This document shows, piece after piece, positions 421 to 8,048 of a stretch of 64,000 bases of DNA. Position 1 is the first letter of the stretch. Every line of letters begins with the position of its first letter. The position numbers and the translations under genes are program-made. Source of the DNA: a virus; the IMG/VR virus record IMGVR_UViG_3300025872_000051, positions 1 to 64,000 of that record; one strand, written 5' to 3'. Below the pieces are notes generated by a model. The model was not told the origin of the DNA. It made no database searches and saw nothing but the letters and a program-made list of their open reading frames with translations.

Positions 421-511
421 TATAGTGGGGCAGCAAAGTCGGGTAGGGGTATTTGACTTGCGTAAGTCCCCATATTATAATATAAATAATGATACCCCTA
501 CTAAAAGAATA
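421..511 (+). promoter_or_regulatory. Leader of homing endonuclease 1: sigma70-like promoter, late promoter and inverted repeat
   Basis: TTGACT(453)-17 bp-TATAAT(476); TATAAATA at 481-488; GTAGGGGTAT (443-452) is the exact reverse complement of ATACCCCTAC (492-501). Confidence 0.7.
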
Positions 512-1111
512 ATGTATTATACTTACGCATATTTGCGTGAAGATGGAACTCCTTACTATATTGGAAAAGGTAAAGGTAAAAGAGTTTATAGCAATAACGG
601 AAAACCCTGTGTAGTTCCAAAAAATAAGAATCAAATAATATTTTTAAAACAAAATTTAACAGAAGAAGAGGCATATATTCACGAAATTTATATGATTAGT
701 ATACTTGGTAGAATTGATATAGGAACAGGTATTCTTCGTAATAAATCTAATGGCGGAGAAGGAAAAAGTGGTTATATACATACGCAAGAAACAAAAAATA
801 AAATAAGTCAAGCAGTAAAGGGTAAAAATCACCCTCTATATGGATGTTCTCCATCGTCAGAAACAAGAAGAAAAATGAGTGACTCTCTTAAAGGTAGAAT
901 AATAACTGACGAATGTAGAGCAAAAATGAGTGAGTCCCATAAAGGTAGACCACCAACTTATGGATTTAAAGGAAAAACTCATACAGAAGAAACACTACAA
1001 AATATGAGGAATAGAAAATGGTGGAATAATGGACAAATCAATAAAACTTCTGTAGAATGTCCTGGTGTCGGTTGGGTTCGTGGTATGCTTAAAGAGAGTA
1101 AAGGGAGGTGA
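512..1111 (+). CDS. Free-standing GIY-YIG-like homing endonuclease with NUMOD3-type repeats (HEG1)
   Basis: YTYAYLREDGTPYYIGKG...R, E..A..HE...I, GILRNKSNGGEG; repeats HTQETKNKIS, SSETRRKMS, HTEETLQNM. ATG 512 is preferred to the GTG at 425. Confidence 0.85.
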   Translation: MYYTYAYLREDGTPYYIGKGKGKRVYSNNGKPCVVPKNKNQIIFLKQNLTEEEAYIHEIYMISILGRIDIGTGILRNKSNGGEGKSGYIHTQETKNKISQAVKGKNHPLYGCSPSSETRRKMSDSLKGRIITDECRAKMSESHKGRPPTYGFKGKTHTEETLQNMRNRKWWNNGQINKTSVECPGVGWVRGMLKESKGR

Positions 1112-1117
1112 TTGAAA

Positions 1118-1513
1118 TTGGGAATGTTTGATTGGGTTCGCAGTAGTTATGACTTAGGCCCTCAATTTACGAATACAATTTTACAAACAAAAGACATAGA
1201 AGAAGGTTATAGTGGCACTATGACACACTTTTGGATTGACCCGAAAGGTGTTTTGTGGTGCCCTGATTATACCGGCACAAATACCTTTGAGATTATTGAA
1301 GAAGATGACCCACGATATAACCCTAAACATCTATTCTTGAACTATGAGTGGATACCTACAGGACAACGCGGAAGGTATCAAGTTCATCCAATCACAAAAT
1401 ATATTGAAGTATACCCAGAAAGATGGAAAGGTGAATGGGAAGATTGGCCCCGATTGAAACTACATTTTAAGAAAGGTGTTCTTCAAGATTATGAGGATGT
1501 GACTGGACGATGA
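1118..1513 (+). CDS. Conserved phage hypothetical protein (GMFD...QTKD family), TTG start
   Basis: GGAGGTGA (1104-1111) lies 6 nt before TTG GGA ATG TTT GAT. Confidence 0.7.
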   Translation: MGMFDWVRSSYDLGPQFTNTILQTKDIEEGYSGTMTHFWIDPKGVLWCPDYTGTNTFEIIEEDDPRYNPKHLFLNYEWIPTGQRGRYQVHPITKYIEVYPERWKGEWEDWPRLKLHFKKGVLQDYEDVTGR

Positions 1514-1830
1514 TTGATACCTCTTTGTTTCCTTATGAAAAGTTCCCTGTGCGATTGCAGTTTGGTGAAAAGAAAGAGATTTCAGTTTGTTGGTTTGAGT
1601 GTGATGAGCACTTGCAAAAATACCTGAATAGGTATAAACTGGACAAGAGAACTATTAAGATTGATTATCGTGATGGAGAACCCACTAAGCCTAGTAAAGC
1701 AAACAAGAACAGTGTGGAATCGGGAACTAGAAAGACCAGTAGTAGAAGTTCAAGTGGAAGTAAACGGAGCACCAAAAAGTTGGATTCCCCTGGAACTGTT
1801 AGTCGCACTCGCAAACCTAAATCAAAATGA
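1510..1830 (+). CDS. Hypothetical protein with basic Ser/Lys-rich tail
   Basis: ORF track; ATGA overlap with the previous gene. Confidence 0.6.
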   Translation: MIDTSLFPYEKFPVRLQFGEKKEISVCWFECDEHLQKYLNRYKLDKRTIKIDYRDGEPTKPSKANKNSVESGTRKTSSRSSSGSKRSTKKLDSPGTVSRTRKPKSK

Positions 1831-1968
1831 ACGAAGCAACGAAACTGTTGTTAGCACTACAACAGATTGATAATCTTACCAGTTTGTTAGAAGGTAACGA
1901 GTATCAAACATTTTTATATTCACATCTAAACTCATTAAACGTAGAACTCAAGAGGCAATTAAGTCATT

Positions 1969-2184
1969 ATGGAAAAACAACTGATTGATGATGCCTTCTA
2001 TGTTGAGGAAAAAAGTTGGGGAACTTGGCAATCTCATCATCCTGATGGAAAAGGTATCATCACCGCTCTTACAGAAGAGGAATGTATTAGAGCAACACGT
2101 TGGTATTTGAAAGCAAAACAAGAAGGTGAGTTTGACAAATCACCCGAAAAAACATATGATAGCACTATTGGAGGAAAACTATGA
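1969..2184 (+). CDS. Small cyanophage hypothetical protein
   Basis: ORF track. Confidence 0.6.
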   Translation: MEKQLIDDAFYVEEKSWGTWQSHHPDGKGIITALTEEECIRATRWYLKAKQEGEFDKSPEKTYDSTIGGKL

Positions 2185-2635
2185 CAACACGTACATTTGT
2201 AGACAAAAATGGTAATAGTTGGTTTTGGGAAGAAACTCCTGAGGTTCTAGAAGTTCTTAAGAACTTTCACGCAGGAAACTATGAAGGTCCATTGTATGCT
2301 CCTCATCCTGATTTGAATAATGAAACTCCGTCTAACACCTAAGCAACAATTGTGGGCAGATGTATTTTGTTGTGCTGTAGAAAGGTCAAATCTCTATTTT
2401 GCAGATAAAGACCTTGACCGACACGCAAGGGAGCATACTACAGTTGTTTTAGCACTACAGAAAGGCGATGAGTTCTGGAGAGAAATACTGTGAAATATCA
2501 CGTTTATGATGAAACAACTCCTTGGTATGATTTTCTTCAGTATTGTGAAATATGTTATCAGTTAAATGTACCAGGACAACCAAATCTCACTAGATTTATG
2601 AGATATAGGCAATATTTGAAAGAAGTTGGAGTTTT

Positions 2636-2863
2636 GTGATGTTTAAGTTTATCAAGTGGTTTATTTCACCCTCAAAACGACCTATTGTATGTGAAGATGT
2701 TGATGTTTATGAAAAATTGATTGAGTTGCAAAAAAGAATTGAAAAACTTGAAGAAGAAAATGTAGAGACAACAAACTGCATTTATGAGTTAGGAAACTCT
2801 GTTAATGCAGTAGATGCACGAATTGATATTATTCTAAATACTCCAAACATTACTGAATTTTAA
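2636..2863 (+). CDS. Small coiled-coil hypothetical protein
   Basis: ORF track; heptad pattern LIELQKRIEKLEEE. Confidence 0.6.
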   Translation: MMFKFIKWFISPSKRPIVCEDVDVYEKLIELQKRIEKLEEENVETTNCIYELGNSVNAVDARIDIILNTPNITEF

Positions 2864-2872
2864 TAAACTATT

Positions 2873-3163
2873 ATGACTTATTCTATTACTCTCCGTTCTG
2901 CTGATGGCACTGAAGAAGTAATCCAATGCGAAGAAGACCAATATATTCTTGATGCTGCTGAATATGCGGGTATTGACCTTCCTTCTAGTTGTCGTGCTGG
3001 TGCTTGCAGTGCTTGTGCTGGTAAAGTGATTGAGGGTGAGGTTGATAATGAGGATCAAACTTTCCTTGATGATGACCAAATGGAACAAGGATTTTCTCTG
3101 TTATGTGTAGCATATCCTAAGAGTGATTGTGTGATTCTCACTGAGCAAGAAGAGAACCTCTGA
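2873..3163 (+). CDS. petF: Plant-type [2Fe-2S] ferredoxin (auxiliary metabolic gene)
   Basis: [23 protein letters not shown]...DQTFLDDDQ...[11 protein letters not shown]. Confidence 0.95.
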
Positions 3164-3345
3164 TGTATGAAGATTTAAACAACTTTGAAAAAGCACTATC
3201 ACATTTTGGTACTAGAGTTGATATAATCTGTTCTTTGGAACTTGGAGGAAAGATTGATGCTGAGACAGCTTATCAGAACATTAAAGACGAACTTAAAGAC
3301 CTCAAAAAAGCACGAAAGCGACAGAGAAAAGACGAGGAGGTGTGA
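3163..3345 (+). CDS. Small conserved cyanophage protein
   Basis: ORF track; start overlaps the petF stop. Confidence 0.65.
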   Translation: MYEDLNNFEKALSHFGTRVDIICSLELGGKIDAETAYQNIKDELKDLKKARKRQRKDEEV

Positions 3346-3460
3346 TAAGTGTGGTGAAGAGAAACCTCTTGACGAAAACCACTATCAGGTGGTAAAGTAT
3401 TTTCGTCAGGGGTTCTCTTACTACTGCAACGACTGTAACAAACCAAAACCCAAAGATTGA
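3242..3460 (+). CDS. Possible small Zn-ribbon protein; start uncertain
   Basis: CDKC...YCNDC motif; overlaps the previous ORF. Confidence 0.4.
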   Translation: MEERLMLRQLIRTLKTNLKTSKKHESDREKTRRCDKCGEEKPLDENHYQVVKYFRQGFSYYCNDCNKPKPKD

Positions 3461-3981
3461 TTATGGACTTTGATTACAAAAAGTATTCGCTTGATAAGTT
3501 GAATGAATGGATGCACGATGCACTCTCCTGCAGTGAAGCAACACCGCAGGAGATTTATGATGTGATTAAAGATGTGGTGAGTGAGAACTATTACACTTAC
3601 AAGATTGAAACTGAAAAGTGTTATGAACTTCTTTGCCTACTGAATGGTAACGGTATCGGTCATATTCAAGCATATGATGATTATGTTACTGACCCCAAAG
3701 GTAATCAAGTGAAAGTTTGCAGTAAAGATGACCCATCACCTGAATGTCAAGGTGCTTGGAATGATTTTTGGGAAGAGAACTATTACCCAGAAGAATATAA
3801 AGAGGATAAAGTAGTTAAGTGGCAACTTCCTGTTGAAGTTGATGGATTAACTGGGGATTGTTTTGTTAACTTTCCTGATGATTTGTTGGAAGCAGCAAAT
3901 CTTAAAGAAGGAGATATGGTAGAGTGGGTAGATAATAATGATGGTAGTTTTACACTGAGGAAAGTTAATGGCACTAAGTAA
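3457..3981 (+). CDS. Protein with a C-terminal AbrB/SpoVT-like DNA-binding domain
   Basis: C-terminus FVNFPDDLLEAANLKEGDMVEWVDNNDGSFTLRK. Confidence 0.65.
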   Translation: MIMDFDYKKYSLDKLNEWMHDALSCSEATPQEIYDVIKDVVSENYYTYKIETEKCYELLCLLNGNGIGHIQAYDDYVTDPKGNQVKVCSKDDPSPECQGAWNDFWEENYYPEEYKEDKVVKWQLPVEVDGLTGDCFVNFPDDLLEAANLKEGDMVEWVDNNDGSFTLRKVNGTK

Positions 3982-4195
3982 ACAAACACTAGAACACCTA
4001 TTAGAGGCTGAAAGTCATCTGAGAGCAGCAATTAAATCTGCTGCCACAAATGAGAAACCACTTGTAGTTAAACAACTCTCACAACTTCTTCTTGATATTG
4101 AACAATGTAAGAAGTTTGAAGAGATTATGGATATGCTTGAAGACCGTAAACCTGGAAGCAAAGGTAACTTTGGTTCTTTCTTTGATAATAATTAA
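3968..4195 (+). CDS. Conserved cyanophage hypothetical protein
   Basis: ORF track. Confidence 0.65.
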   Translation: MALSKQTLEHLLEAESHLRAAIKSAATNEKPLVVKQLSQLLLDIEQCKKFEEIMDMLEDRKPGSKGNFGSFFDNN

Positions 4196-4448
4196 GTTTT
4201 GTAACGACACTCTAAAGACATCATTAAGGAATCGCACTTATCTCTTAAATAATGTTAGGATTTAAAGATATATGGGAGCAAAATGATGACTTATTCCAAG
4301 AAGAATACCAGTGAACTCACACAAACTGAATGGGATGAAATGGTTGCTCTTAAGAAAGCTATAAACTATGATATTACTCAAGTTCATCCAGAGAAGATGG
4401 AACAATTCACTGAGTATCTTGTTCGTAGTTTGAAGGAGAAGGGTGGTT

Positions 4449-4542
4449 GATAAATAATGATGCTTATTCGTGGTTGTTTAAGCAGAAAGGGGTCTTTGTG
4501 ACCCCTTTCTTATATAAATAGACATAACCACGGATAAAGCAG
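4449..4542 (+). promoter_or_regulatory. HEG2 leader unit: late promoter, stem-loop, terminator, second late promoter, complementary leader
   Basis: GATAAATA 4449; stem TGCTTA/TAAGCA; hairpin AGAAAGGGGTC/GACCCCTTTCT 4484-4510; TATAAATA 4513; TTATTCGTGGTT (4464-4475) pairs with AACCACGGATAA (4526-4537). Confidence 0.75.
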
Positions 4543-5235
4543 ATGGAATACTATACTTACGCTTATTTGCGTGAAGATGGCTCACCTTATTATATTGGTA
4601 AGGGGAAAGGTGATAGGGCATATAGAAAAAAAAGGAAGAATGGAAAACCTCCAATAGATAAATCTAGAATATTAATTTTAAAGCAAAATTTAACTGAAGA
4701 AGAAGCATTTAAGCACGAAATCTATATGATTGCAGTCTTTGGTAGAAAAGACTTGCGGACAGGTATTCTTCATAATAGAACTAATGGTGGTGATGGAACA
4801 AGCGGACATAAAATGAGTGAGATTGGTAGGCATAAATTAAGTAACCTAAAAAAAGGTGTAAAATTACCAGAAAGTCATATAAAAAATATTGCAAAATCAG
4901 TTAAAAAAAGATGGGAAGACCCAGAATATAAAGAAAAAATGTCACTTTTACAGAAAGGTAAAAAGAAAAGTGAGGAACATAAGAAAAAAATTGGAGAAGC
5001 AAATAGAGGAAAATCTGTTAATAAAGGGTTGTTTTCTAAAATATGGGAAATAACTTATGAAAATGGAAATGTTGAAATTGTTTATGATGGTCTTCCACTT
5101 TGGTGTGAAAAAAATGGTTATTTCTGGAGTAAAATAAGAGATTTATCAAGAGGAAGGGCAAAGAGGTCAAGTGGTCTTGTGTCAGTTAGGGAAGTGTCAC
5201 ATGGAAAGTGGCAAAGACGCTTGGATGCCCTATAA
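4543..5235 (+). CDS. Free-standing GIY-YIG-like homing endonuclease (HEG2)
   Basis: Same N-terminal domain as HEG1; NUMOD3-like KKSEEHKKKIG. Confidence 0.85.
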   Translation: MEYYTYAYLREDGSPYYIGKGKGDRAYRKKRKNGKPPIDKSRILILKQNLTEEEAFKHEIYMIAVFGRKDLRTGILHNRTNGGDGTSGHKMSEIGRHKLSNLKKGVKLPESHIKNIAKSVKKRWEDPEYKEKMSLLQKGKKKSEEHKKKIGEANRGKSVNKGLFSKIWEITYENGNVEIVYDGLPLWCEKNGYFWSKIRDLSRGRAKRSSGLVSVREVSHGKWQRRLDAL

Positions 5236-5236
5236 T
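5178..5236 (+). promoter_or_regulatory. Palindrome plus sigma70-like promoter inside the HEG2 3' end
   Basis: TGTGTCAGTT-N4-AAGTGTCACA, then GTGGCA(5208)-17 bp-TATAAT(5231). Confidence 0.65.
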
Positions 5237-5262
5237 ACAGTTGTTGATTTGAGGAACCTCCC

Positions 5263-5670
5263 ATAGCGACTCGTGGAAGAATTGGAATTGAATTGAAAGA
5301 TGGTTCGATATTGAGCATCTATTCACACTACGATAATTATCCCGAATACAACGGTAGGATTCTTCGCACTCACTACAATACCCGTGAAAAAGTTGCGGAA
5401 CTTGTAGATGGGGGGGATGTGAGTTGCCTTTGGACTGATGATCGCTGGGATAATAGTGGGGATGGTTCTTATGGACCTAACTATTACTCCTATCGTGGTG
5501 ATAATTGCCCTCCTCGCCTTGATGCAAACAAGTACGATTACCTTGCTGAAGGTGAAGAGTACGCTTATCTCTACACTCTGAAAGGTGAGTGGGTGTGCTA
5601 TAATCGTAATGAGTTTGGTAGTAAAATGCCTGAAATTTGTGAAATCCCCTCTGGAGCACTTGCTGTTTAA
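5263..5670 (+). CDS. Conserved cyanophage protein (ATRGRIGIEL... family), probable ATA start
   Basis: In-frame ATA GCG ACT CGT GGA AGA ATT GGA follows GAGGA; the track start at 5293 cuts off the TRGRIG N-terminus. Confidence 0.65.
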   Translation: MATRGRIGIELKDGSILSIYSHYDNYPEYNGRILRTHYNTREKVAELVDGGDVSCLWTDDRWDNSGDGSYGPNYYSYRGDNCPPRLDANKYDYLAEGEEYAYLYTLKGEWVCYNRNEFGSKMPEICEIPSGALAV

Positions 5671-5672
5671 TT

Positions 5673-5894
5673 ATGAAACCTAAGTATCTTGCTGCTGGAC
5701 TGATTGCTTTCTCTGCTGTGATTGGATGGAATGTATTCCTAGTGCAGCGTGATGATGCAATGTATAAAGAATACTATCGTCGTCAAGCAATAGAGAACCT
5801 CAAACGACCACCAAGCAAAGATATTGCATATTCTCCCAAAGAACAATTTTGTCAGTCTCAAGCGCACTGGCATCCTGATTGTGATGTAGAATGA
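5673..5894 (+). CDS. Small membrane-anchored protein
   Basis: N-terminal hydrophobic helix YLAAGLIAFSAVIGWNVFLV. Confidence 0.6.
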   Translation: MKPKYLAAGLIAFSAVIGWNVFLVQRDDAMYKEYYRRQAIENLKRPPSKDIAYSPKEQFCQSQAHWHPDCDVE

Positions 5895-6148
5895 GTTTAT
5901 CACTTGCAATCGCAATCTACTGTGCTATGATTGCTGTGGTCTCATCACTTCTCACTTATTATTTCAAGGTGATGAGACCTAGAGAAGAAGAACAACTTAA
6001 AGGAGGAAAAACTCTTGATTGATTATAACAAAGACCGCAAAGACCTTCAGATTGATAGGACTGCTGATGATTTCTGTATGTGGGCAGAAGAACAAGCAGC
6101 AAAGTTTGAAATCACGGTTGATTATTTCTTTGAGGAGTTTCTTCTGGA

Positions 6149-6177
6149 TTGACAATCAAACCAAAAAACATTAAACT
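6149..6177 (+). promoter_or_regulatory. Sigma70-like promoter
   Basis: TTGACA-17 bp-TAAACT upstream of ORF 6201. Confidence 0.65.
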
Positions 6178-6200
6178 AAAGGAGTAACTTACACAAACAA

Positions 6201-6434
6201 ATGAAGTATCTGTATATTGTTGATTTCTGGGTTCCTTTTCCTTCTTCGGAATATGGTGGACTAATCAATGTTATTGCTAAAGATGACATTGAATGTCACG
6301 ATATTCTGAGGGATAGTGAAATCTCTTATGATTCTTCCTATGACAATAAGATTATGGAGCGTGTAGTTGCTGCTCCACGTTTTGCTCTTGCTGAAGAAGA
6401 AGAGTCCCGCGTTGTTGAATCCTTTACGACCTGA
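6201..6434 (+). CDS. Conserved cyanophage small protein (YIVDFWVPFPSSEYGG)
   Basis: ORF track; promoter upstream. Confidence 0.7.
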   Translation: MKYLYIVDFWVPFPSSEYGGLINVIAKDDIECHDILRDSEISYDSSYDNKIMERVVAAPRFALAEEEESRVVESFTT

Positions 6435-6593
6435 TGAGTAATCCTGAAATGAATCGTCTTGCGTTTGATTTGAAACAACAATACCAAGACCGCATAGAAG
6501 ATTTGCAACAAAAGATTACAGAACAGCAGAAAGAAATCCTAAAACTCCAAGAACAGATTAAACTGCTATCATACGACAAATACTACGATTGTT

Positions 6594-6698
6594 GATAAAT
6601 ACTAATGCCTGAGTTGGGTGCAATCTTCACAGGTAGAGAGGGAGCAGAAATGCTCCTTTTCTTTTATAAATACTATTGCACCCAACTAAAGAGCAGTT
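6594..6698 (+). promoter_or_regulatory. HEG3 leader unit, same architecture as HEG2
   Basis: GATAAATA 6594; stem TGCCTG/CAGGTA; terminator GGAGCA-GAAA-TGCTCC-TTTT; TATAAATA 6665; AGTTGGGTGCAAT (6612-6624) is the exact reverse complement of ATTGCACCCAACT (6675-6687). Confidence 0.8.
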
Positions 6699-7313
6699 AT
6701 GGAAAATCCTAAGAGATTTTACACTTACGCATATTTGCGTGAAGATGGAACACCTTATTATGTTGGAAAAGGAAGTAAGTATAGAGCATATTATAAAAAA
6801 AGAAATGAAGTAAAACCGCCGAAAGACAAATCTAAAATTATATTTTTAAAGAAAAATTTAAGCGAAGAAGAAGCATTTAAACACGAAATTTATATGATTA
6901 ATGTGTTTGGTAGAAAAGATTTGGGAACGGGTATTTTGCGTAATAAAACTGATGGTGGCGATGGAATATTCAATTTGATAAGAACAAAAGAACATATGGA
7001 TGCTCTACGCAGAGGTAGATTAAGTTATTCTTTTACTGATAAAGTTAAAAATAAAATCAGTAATACCTTAAAGGAAAAAAATATTAAACCACCATCAAGA
7101 AAAGGTATAAAACACAAAGAAGAATATTTCAATAAAAGATGTAAAAAAACATATAAAATTATAAATCCAGATGGAAAAATCTTTATCACAAATAGATTAA
7201 AGAATTTCTGTAAGATCAATAATTTGACTTGTAGTTGTATGTGTGATGTTGCTAATGGAAAATACAAACAATATAAGGGGTGGACAGTTAAAATACTGGA
7301 ACAGAAACCTTGA
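6699..7313 (+). CDS. Free-standing GIY-YIG-like homing endonuclease (HEG3)
   Basis: YTYAYLREDGTPYYVGKG; C-terminal LKNFCKINNL...GKYKQYKGW DNA-binding module. Confidence 0.85.
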   Translation: MENPKRFYTYAYLREDGTPYYVGKGSKYRAYYKKRNEVKPPKDKSKIIFLKKNLSEEEAFKHEIYMINVFGRKDLGTGILRNKTDGGDGIFNLIRTKEHMDALRRGRLSYSFTDKVKNKISNTLKEKNIKPPSRKGIKHKEEYFNKRCKKTYKIINPDGKIFITNRLKNFCKINNLTCSCMCDVANGKYKQYKGWTVKILEQKP

Positions 7314-7338
7314 CTTTTGCTTGATTTTTTCTTATAGT
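7280..7338 (+). promoter_or_regulatory. Degenerate palindrome plus sigma70-like promoter at the HEG3 3' end
   Basis: GTGGACAGTT-N4-TACTGGAACA, then TTGACT(7310)-17 bp-TATAGT(7333); same spacing as the 5178 element. Confidence 0.65.
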
Positions 7339-7361
7339 GTCTTTGTTGAGTAAAACTTAGT

Positions 7362-7646
7362 TTGGAACTTCCACCTCTACCTTATTCTGCCCCCGATGGA
7401 TATTATTATGAATGTGAAGAATTCAAGAGGAATGTTGTTCGTATTTGGTTATGCAACACTCATAAGTTTGACTACAATAATGGTGCTCCAACGAAAACAA
7501 TTCATTCATTTTATAACACCAAAACCAGAGAATACTTTGCCCCAATCAATAGTAAGACCATCGGTGTTCGTGTAAATATTAAAGATACACGAAATTATAC
7601 AACGATGCCGATTAAACAATCTCCATTAGATAAGTTTTTCGTATGA
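7362..7646 (+). CDS. Conserved cyanophage protein (FKRNVVRIWL...APINSK), TTG start
   Basis: ORF track. Confidence 0.7.
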   Translation: MELPPLPYSAPDGYYYECEEFKRNVVRIWLCNTHKFDYNNGAPTKTIHSFYNTKTREYFAPINSKTIGVRVNIKDTRNYTTMPIKQSPLDKFFV

Positions 7647-7818: not shown

Positions 7819-8034
7819 ATGAAACAAAAGAAAACTGTTTGGAGGTTAATAGCAAAATCTCTTGGGGAAAAATCAGGTAAAAATGATGCAGAGGCGGATA
7901 GGATTGCTCTTATCCGTCTTTTGATGTTTCTTTCTATTTTTATTACAAACGCATTTATTATCTTTAATGCTGTAAGAACTCATATCGTACCAGCAGAACC
8001 TAAACCAGTGAAGTGTATCATTCTAAATACATAA
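7819..8034 (+). CDS. Small membrane protein (WRLIAKSLGEKSG..D.EAD)
   Basis: One TM helix; motif typical of T4-like aquatic phages. Confidence 0.65.
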   Translation: MKQKKTVWRLIAKSLGEKSGKNDAEADRIALIRLLMFLSIFITNAFIIFNAVRTHIVPAEPKPVKCIILNT

Positions 8035-8048
8035 AATACGCTAGACAA

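Follow-up and report, generated by a model that had tools for sequence, protein, structure and literature searches.

In a T4-like cyanophage, three homing endonuclease genes (HEGs) that stand within some 7 kb of the plastic early region raise the question of what such genes do to the genes that follow them. The DNA analysed here (the window) comprises 64,000 nucleotides (nt), positions 1-64,000 of IMGVR_UViG_3300025872_000051, a 76-kb IMG/VR record that is approximately 35% complete. It is a fragment of a T4-like cyanomyovirus whose genes match those of S-PM2-type cyanophages. When the region was compared with isolate phages by megablast, the sole match was to the conserved nuclease N-terminal DNA in S-SRM01. 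The three paralogous open reading frames (ORFs), HEG1 (512-1111), HEG2 (4543-5235) and HEG3 (6699-7313), are each followed by a small gene, here named G1, G2 and G3. A preliminary description of the window proposed that all three following genes may be recoded, cleavage-resistant alleles, and that the nuclease leaders may be copies of the homing site that serve as operator or guide. The comparison with related contigs favours another answer. The three nuclease genes are probably Seg-like, free-standing GIY-YIG cassettes placed exactly at gene boundaries, with leaders that act as late-expression switches and right ends that remodel the next gene, and only G2 would have a nuclease-linked, rewritten 5' stretch.

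All three nuclease ORFs match PHROG homing endonuclease families (1e-10 to 1e-17). All three have in common a conserved N-terminal domain, some 90 amino acids in length, with variable C-terminal parts after it. In an alignment of 18 homologues, the GIY-YIG residue columns Y3, Y5, Y7, Y16, G18, E58 and N77 are invariant and R24 is nearly so. The Pfam domain NUMOD3 is found in HEG1 (E=1e-26) and, below the cut-off, in HEG2 (E=0.0015), and is not detected in HEG3. The AlphaFold model of HEG1 has an N-terminal predicted local distance difference test score of 72-88 and a beta-beta-alpha-beta-alpha order. With this model, the top nine matches in VIA are all GIY-YIG domains, at middling Z scores of 4.2-5.2 (64-70 residues aligned, root-mean-square deviation 3.2-4.3), while single-sequence and profile searches of the PDB gave marginal GIY-YIG matches only (profile best E=0.03). 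Because motifs, context and this weak fold match support membership, the genes are referred to as GIY-YIG-type free-standing homing endonuclease genes. The family is also modular, with a single conserved catalytic domain joined to one of three interchangeable C-terminal module types (A, WW.NG...ECPG.GW; B, W.ITF.DG...HKDIVAVE; C, Y.I..PDG...NGKYKQ.KGW). The nucleases at the second site are all of type B and those at the third site are all of type C; type B is found at other sites too.

Among syntenic contigs (individual loci are given below as L numbers), the nuclease genes are present or absent at identical sites. On the left, the junctions lie exactly past the stop codon of the upstream gene, where there is a conserved TAAATA..TGC box, and the 3' ends of all three ORFs run into the signals of the next gene. 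The last 20 or so codons of HEG2 span a palindromic element (5179-5200) and the G2 promoter-like site, and the HEG3 stop codon falls within the -35 element of the G3 promoter-like site. At all three sites, the right end of the cassette would thus abut or overlap the expression signals of the following gene. The gene that precedes HEG2 is 54-97 nt away from G2 in many contigs, as opposed to 816 nt in the window. One contig, 3300047564_002805 (loci L085 and L012), is collinear with the window over 10 kb and is without all three nucleases. Compared with this relative, the genes that precede the nucleases are 93-98% identical in protein, those that come directly after them 79, 70 and 54%, and the next genes 88-96%. 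The pattern is compatible with nucleases located at boundaries of exchange (PMC2988022, PMC10448857). Homing by site-specific cleavage of nuclease-less alleles, with super-Mendelian inheritance, is putative; presence and absence, deletion scars and a linked flank point to it indirectly. In the place of HEG1, between its homologues of the gene at 247-420 and G1, the relative carries an unrelated 150-amino-acid ORF (relative positions 2520-2975), and the first site is therefore a swap point for different cargo.

The leaders of the nuclease genes have an architecture of their own. In all of the approximately 22 homologous leaders checked on viral contigs, a long-range helix of 15-26 bp spans the late promoter; enclosed in it are a GC hairpin followed by a T-run and the ATAAATA/TATAAATA box. 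ATAAATA lies between the arms and, except in L120 (-10, owing to a mis-picked ATG), occupies -29 to -36 relative to the ATG. In most of these leaders, the 3' arm reaches to within 0-3 nt of the ATG or overlaps it, less clearly so for HEG1; in HEG2, it stops 2 nt before ATG 4543. The predicted folds are stable, with -38.7 kcal/mol for the HEG2 leader (z -6.7 against shuffles) and -44.1 kcal/mol for the HEG3 leader (z -6.3). The structure was predicted from per-sequence folds and from a test of cognate against non-cognate arm duplexes. Arms vary among cassettes yet remain complementary (covariation): cognate duplexes overall reach -20 to -26 kcal/mol (HEG2, -21.7; HEG3, -26.4), whereas non-cognate duplexes average -7.9 +/- 3.6, with a mean of -8.6 for each of HEG2 and HEG3. 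The HEG1 architecture, which represents a second leader type, recurs in L003, L008 and L010 with different yet complementary arms. Consensus folding of 15 leaders with MAFFT and RNAalifold recovered the inner GC hairpin only, because indels misalign the arms, and a search of Rfam at permissive thresholds found no family matching the leaders. In the 64-kb window, TATAAATA is depleted (3 found against 7.6 expected), and its sites, at 481, 4513 and 6665, are all in nuclease leaders.

This arrangement suggests an expression switch, in which a terminator-like GC hairpin and the TATAAATA late promoter are nested in a long-range helix whose 3' arm would cover the translation start of the nuclease. 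Because the start would be covered, read-through transcripts would be silent and only transcripts from the internal late promoter would be translated; late timing and read-through silencing can be inferred from these elements. A similar arrangement is known in I-TevI, I-TevII, I-TevIII, T4 segB and Aeh1 mobE, which have a stable helix over the start and a late promoter within it (PMC2988022). Late transcripts of the T4 and Aeh1 nucleases lack the 5' arm, since TATAAATA sits inside the helix (PMC2988022). Likewise, for free-standing endonucleases of cyanophage-like metagenome loci, Dassa et al. (2009) reported hairpins in 15 of 16 5' untranslated regions, of which 10 contained TATAAATA, and described two motifs that base-pair within the stem (PMC2677866). 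The leaders in the window resemble the first group in that the helix covers the start and holds TATAAATA inside. They differ in also nesting a terminator-like GC hairpin, in having the conserved TAAATA..TGC box at the leader's 5' edge, directly at the upstream stop, and in occurring as two types. Two further observations concern leader-like sequence elsewhere. The shorter CTAAATA, at 8023 and 9053, precedes genes for basic proteins at 8040 and 9076. In L124, which has a 545-nt insert before G2, an exact 13-nt match to the 5' arm of HEG3 (AGTTGGGTGCAAT) lies approximately 52-65 nt upstream of the G2 start and is possibly another leader remnant.

The leaders are, then, probably ordinary late-expression switches of a kind already known, not target copies, and the operator or guide proposed in the preliminary description has to be corrected in that sense. 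The proposal had some grounds. The I-TevI operator matches its homing site at 15 of 20 positions (PMC2988022), and the nucleases of the window share with I-TevI the GIY-YIG type and a late promoter just upstream, as in I-TevI autorepression. However, unlike that operator, the leaders show no above-chance match either to DNA around the neighbour's start or to the DNA of the supposedly lost motifs. Against the region from -80 to +120 around the start in nuclease-free alleles, the three leaders score 21, 24 and 21, with 21.5, 22.4 and 23.1 at chance. Against the motif DNA, the cognate scores are 12, 20 and 15, with 14.6, 15.9 and 15.8 for shuffled sequence. Cognate pairs do no better than non-cognate ones. 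An apparent similarity between the HEG2 leader and the G2 junction (35 against 21.8) was an artefact of a slice that held 20 nt of the upstream gene, and it disappeared with strict boundaries. The short words cited in favour of a copied site (GGTATT, TTATCC, GTGGTT, TTGGG and CAATCT) are indeed in the leaders, but as pieces of the covarying hairpin arms. Near-identical arms occur in HEG2 and in the L148 nuclease at the G3 site; arms therefore follow the cassette and not the target.

The supposed recoding rested on the start codons and on one motif in each of the three genes. TTG 1118, ATA 5263 and TTG 7362 are all present and align with the starts of homologues, and the neighbouring genes mostly start with ATG, with a non-ATG start in about one in eight; in G1, however, an ATG (1124) comes two codons after the TTG. 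The motifs do read GYSGT, HYDNYPEYNG and TIHSFY. The forms named as usual (GIGGT, HWDGYPEWLG and TIWGFY) all exist in relatives, but only HWDGYPEWLG is truly the usual one. In the sample of nuclease-free alleles with a native, uninterrupted junction, GYSGT is the commonest form of G1 and TIHSFY the commonest form of G3. Neither motif has a conserved column changed in the window, and the identity profiles of G1 and G3 have no excess divergence or gradient near the nuclease. Immunised alleles are therefore not supported for these two genes.

The start codons of G1 and G3 have different backgrounds. In G1, the position of TTG 1118 corresponds to the first ATG in the ATG-GGN-ATG start that is usual in homologues, and the start is ambiguous because of ATG 1124. 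Nuclease-free alleles have TTG at this position in L103 and L108 and ATC in L083, L099 and L111, so that the TTG, with an AUG only two codons further on, is most simply read as an ordinary polymorphism. In the three ATC alleles, the ATC sits 8 nt after GGAGGA and an ATG follows two codons later; G1 is a second gene family where ATC may serve as a start. In G3, the upstream gene overlaps directly (ATGACTGTTGA) in approximately 50 syntenic nuclease-free contigs, the ATG of G3 lying within its last codons. In the window, L135, L137 and L138, a block of 760-770 nt separates the two genes. HEG3 copies that are 73-75% identical occupy the same site in L135, L137, L138 and L148, and TTG is the start in five of five nuclease-bearing alleles and in the scar allele L136. 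All of these have a promoter-like TTGACT-17-TAT(A/T)(G/A)T and a short leader before the TTG. In the window, TTG 7362 is the sole start between an in-frame TGA (7347-7349) and the conserved N-terminus, and it aligns with the starts of homologues. Because the insertion displaced the native ATG that overlaps the upstream stop, G3 would have acquired a cassette-borne promoter and the TTG start in its place. L136 (2940-3003) has no nuclease; its upstream stop TGTTGA is joined straight to CTTTTG, as if by a deletion between two TTGA words.

The full proposal of the preliminary description, with three recoded alleles and leaders that copy the homing site, is hardly credible after these comparisons. 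It accounts for non-ATG starts at the homologue-aligned position in all three genes, against about one in eight of their neighbours, and all three are locally the most diverged genes with respect to the close relative. The chance-level leader scores, the covarying arms that recur at another site, and the common, undiverged motif regions of G1 and G3 speak against it, and it is largely refuted in silico.

G2 is a different matter. Its ATA 5263 aligns exactly with the ATG of S-PM2 p016 and of approximately 80 other alleles. The nearest in-frame stop before it, a TGA, is 18 nt upstream, and the interval contains no canonical start. A pattern search of viral-contig DNA for the G2 leader (TTGATTTGAGG..C.T..C) returned 11 stretches from at least 7 distinct contigs, and ATA or ATC comes next in all of them and ATG in none. 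Further copies followed by ATA or ATC are on metagenome contigs (L170, L171, L190, L194 and L231). An AUA or AUC start is shared by twelve DNA stretches outside the window, which come from at least nine distinct contigs. All alleles with this leader carry cargo upstream, either a nuclease or the scar of one, or else another gene. In model bacteria, translation initiates very poorly at ATA or ATC, and the window, L003 and L026 have an in-frame TTG at codon 11 (5293 in the window). It might be argued that ATA 5263 is no start and that G2 is N-terminally truncated, beginning at this TTG, or decaying. This is improbable, given that the next canonical start is only at codon 53 in L062/L166 and L161/L169 and at codon 30 in L151/L163, where the codons before it still encode the conserved N-terminus and the motif, with synonymous differences. 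Moreover, GAGG stands 8 nt upstream of the ATA or ATC in all copies, and no copy of the leader precedes ATG. The alignment of the ATA, the upstream TGA, a leader never joined to ATG and the distance of the next starts therefore make initiation at AUA or AUC the best reading of the comparison, in which a cassette-side promoter and leader would end in this codon. The ideas that nucleases split G2 (genes in pieces), that group I introns are involved, or that HEG2 is read in frame into G2 were rejected, because there are two stop codons in between and the starts of homologues fall exactly on the position of the ATA.

The first part of G2 is unusual as well. The motif in the window reads SHYDNYPEYNG (5323-5355). 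In G2, 73 columns are conserved in at least 80% of the other alleles; the window changes nine of these, five of them within the 11-column motif (p=0.003). Mosaicism was hinted at by a quick tree, which left many forks unresolved and served only as a pointer. The window allele is 88% identical to the nuclease-bearing L026 over codons 2-60 and 66% over codons 61-135, whereas its identity to canonical alleles is 60-62% over the former and 80-84% over the latter. The breakpoint lies near codon 61 (informative sites 57:10 against 14:55, Fisher p=8e-15). Measured against the spread of canonical alleles, nuclease-linked alleles lie 5-17 standard deviations below over codons 2-31 and approximately 2-7 below over codons 32-60. 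Over codons 61-135, they are mostly within +/-1, falling to -3.0 in L231, L190 and L241. The same one-sided divergence is found in the separate nuclease-bearing lineages L017, L210 and L161. The motif deviates by at least two residues in 13 of the 14 nuclease- or scar-bearing alleles, compared with about one in five of the others, and the replacements are distinct (YDNYPEYN, WDNFPEHN, WNNSPEHN, YDNYPEWA and WDGFPEYT). The motif DNA is the most conserved stretch of G2 across 86 canonical alleles (90% mean identity).

These data suggest that the first 60 or so codons of G2 would be a distinct haplotype, altered motif included, that travels with the nuclease by co-conversion or hitch-hiking. Mosaicism shows this tract of approximately 180 bp to be nuclease-linked in a manner that fits co-conversion. 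It is plausible that the tract holds the cleavage site and confers resistance (target immunity). A more specific proposal can be made only tentatively: the 33 nt for HHWDGYPEWLG may be, or lie within, the recognition or cleavage site of the type-B nucleases inserted upstream, the replacements may represent repeated escape at the near-invariant Trp, Gly and Leu, and AUA or AUC may be a genuine, conserved start.

Nuclease-free alleles with the same residues and start as in the window do exist (L003, L171, L190 and L231), which on the face of it tells against recoding of G2. They do not decide the matter, because L003, L171 and L231 (as well as L181, with an ATG start) carry nuclease scars and L190 has a methyltransferase-like gene upstream of G2. 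In L003 (2802-2960), a solo leader scar holds a complete nuclease leader, with the TAAATA box, both arms, the GC hairpin and TATAAATA, then ATG GAA TAG. Next come the last 12 or so codons of a type-B nuclease, and these are followed directly by a G2 allele that is 93% identical to that of the window. That L003 might be an independent allele, free of nuclease yet with the ATA and motif of the window, was considered and rejected, the sequence being a deletion scar. In L181, only the nuclease C-terminal domain remains, and in L171 and L231 half of the 3' palindrome. What was claimed for G2 therefore stands in part, with a nuclease-linked 5' tract, an ATA or ATC start and a cluster of motif changes, set against one allele, in L233, that does not conform.

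Several observations weigh against the reading favoured here. Firstly, the nucleases stay below threshold for the Pfam GIY-YIG models, the only match being PF22945 (LEM-3 GIY-YIG; E=0.0088, with 16.5 bits where the cut-off is 27), and Foldseek with the HEG1 model found no match at E<=0.001, the best being UvrC GIY-YIG domains at a weak E of 0.4-1. Secondly, the HEG1 leader alone folds no better than shuffles (z -0.43) and its 3' arm stops 9 nt before the ATG. Thirdly, the promoter calls are consensus matches only, with 25 found against 26.6 expected. Fourthly, low identity to the relative 3300047564_002805 also occurs in approximately 7 of the 24 other genes compared, and because low values occur elsewhere in the region, the divergence of all three post-nuclease genes amounts to only p ~0.04. 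Finally, two observations concern the G2 tract: in L233, an intact nuclease lies next to a G2 whose 5' region is fully canonical, which speaks against cleavage resistance, and variant alleles also lie behind other cargo, namely a methyltransferase (L164 and L190) and a secreted protein (L189).

The last two observations also agree with a rather unlikely alternative, in which the G2 tract is unrelated to the nuclease. It would be an old allelic lineage shuffled by promoter-bounded cassette recombination, which is typical of the hyperplastic regions of T4-type phages, and the nuclease would prefer this lineage or persist in it. The region is rich in repeated promoter-like joints, and mosaicism is common along the window, as this alternative would have it. 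It explains less well why the motif deviates in nearly all nuclease- or scar-bearing alleles and in only a minority of others, why L017, L210 and L161 diverge only in the nuclease-proximal part, and why divergence peaks where nuclease-free alleles are most conserved at the DNA level. A tract that travels with the nuclease is the preferred reading of these three points.

The cassettes can be compared with known free-standing nucleases (PMC2988022). They share with them a same-orientation gene in the gap between conserved genes, a GIY-YIG N-terminal domain with a modular C-terminal DNA-binding part, presence or absence at identical sites in relatives, a promoter of the next gene in or abutting the nuclease 3' end, and a flank that travels with the gene. 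The putative HEGs of the window differ in their weak sequence similarity to GIY-YIG models, solved or curated; in addition, the tract inferred for them is short (approximately 180 bp) and one-sided, and the start of the next gene is changed to AUA/AUC or UUG. The 'fractured gene' loci of cyanophage-like origin (PMC2677866) have the same kind of leader and come from the same kind of phage, but their nucleases split genes between the two halves of a split intein, whereas those of the window lie between intact small genes. If the reading favoured here holds, natural variation alone shows that free-standing HEGs remodel their cyanophage neighbours, by displacing a start, supplying a promoter and dragging along a short flank. 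The G2 locus offers many natural alleles, nuclease-bearing, scarred and nuclease-free, with which the target of a GIY-YIG nuclease and the variants that escape it could be mapped, and for the comparative study of AUA/AUC initiation in phage genes, G2 is a clean case. The features of the locus are listed in Table 1.

Table 1. Coordinates of the nuclease genes, their leaders and the genes that follow them, as positions in the window.
Feature	Position	Strand	Description
HEG1 leader (second leader type)	421-511	+	Arms 442-452 and 492-502 enclose TATAAATA 481-488 and sigma70-like TTGACT-17-TATAAT 453-481
HEG1	512-1111	+	199 amino acids, GIY-YIG-type with NUMOD3 repeats; C-terminal module type A (KKWWNNGQ...ECPG.GW)
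G1 (phrog_1615)	1118-1513	+	Start TTG 1118 or ATG 1124; GYSGT 1204-1218; ordinary allele
HEG2 leader	4451-4542	+	5' arm 4461-4480; GC hairpin 4484-4510, then T-run; TATAAATA 4513-4520; 3' arm 4519-4540
HEG2	4543-5235	+	230 amino acids, GIY-YIG-type; C-terminal module type B
G2 promoter-like site and leader	5208-5262	+	GTGGCA-17-TATAAT (5208-5236); GAGG (5251-5254), 8 nt before ATA
G2 (phrog_1987, T4-GC 66)	5263-5670	+	ATA start; divergent tract, codons 1-60 (5263-5442); codons 61-135 ordinary
HEG3 leader	6596-6698	+	5' arm 6606-6624; GC hairpin 6635-6662, then T-run; TATAAATA 6665-6672; 3' arm 6675-6695
HEG3	6699-7313	+	204 amino acids, GIY-YIG-type; C-terminal module type C
G3 promoter-like site	7310-7361	+	TTGACT-17-TATAGT (7310-7338) and short leader; part of cassette right flank
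G3 (phrog_573)	7362-7646	+	TTG start; TIHSFY 7497-7514

The gap before G2 is a hot spot for insertion in general (L164, L190, L166, L168, L151/L163 and L189). Besides nucleases, it receives a Dam-like (DPPY) methyltransferase, a two-gene block of 209 and 218 amino acids, a 187-amino-acid protein with a possible GIY-YIG/T5orf172-like motif, and a secreted protein of 135-157 amino acids. A dyad, GTGnCAnTT-N4-AAnTGnCAC, is situated 25-30 nt upstream of the G2 -10 box at 5179-5200 of the window, and also in L004, L160, L161, L166 and L164. It encodes the conserved C-terminal IVAVE(K/E)(V/L)(A/S)Q of type-B nucleases, closes an unrelated 218-amino-acid ORF in L166, and is non-coding in nuclease-free alleles. 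This dyad could be a regulator site or a recombination joint.

Further along the window, between 8461 and 24800, there are repeated 32-nt joints whose core, AAAGTGTCC..TAGTA(A/G)T, is common to the sequence just upstream of nuclease-free G2, for example that of the relative. The ATG or ATA that follows these joints looks like part of a -10 region, not a start codon.

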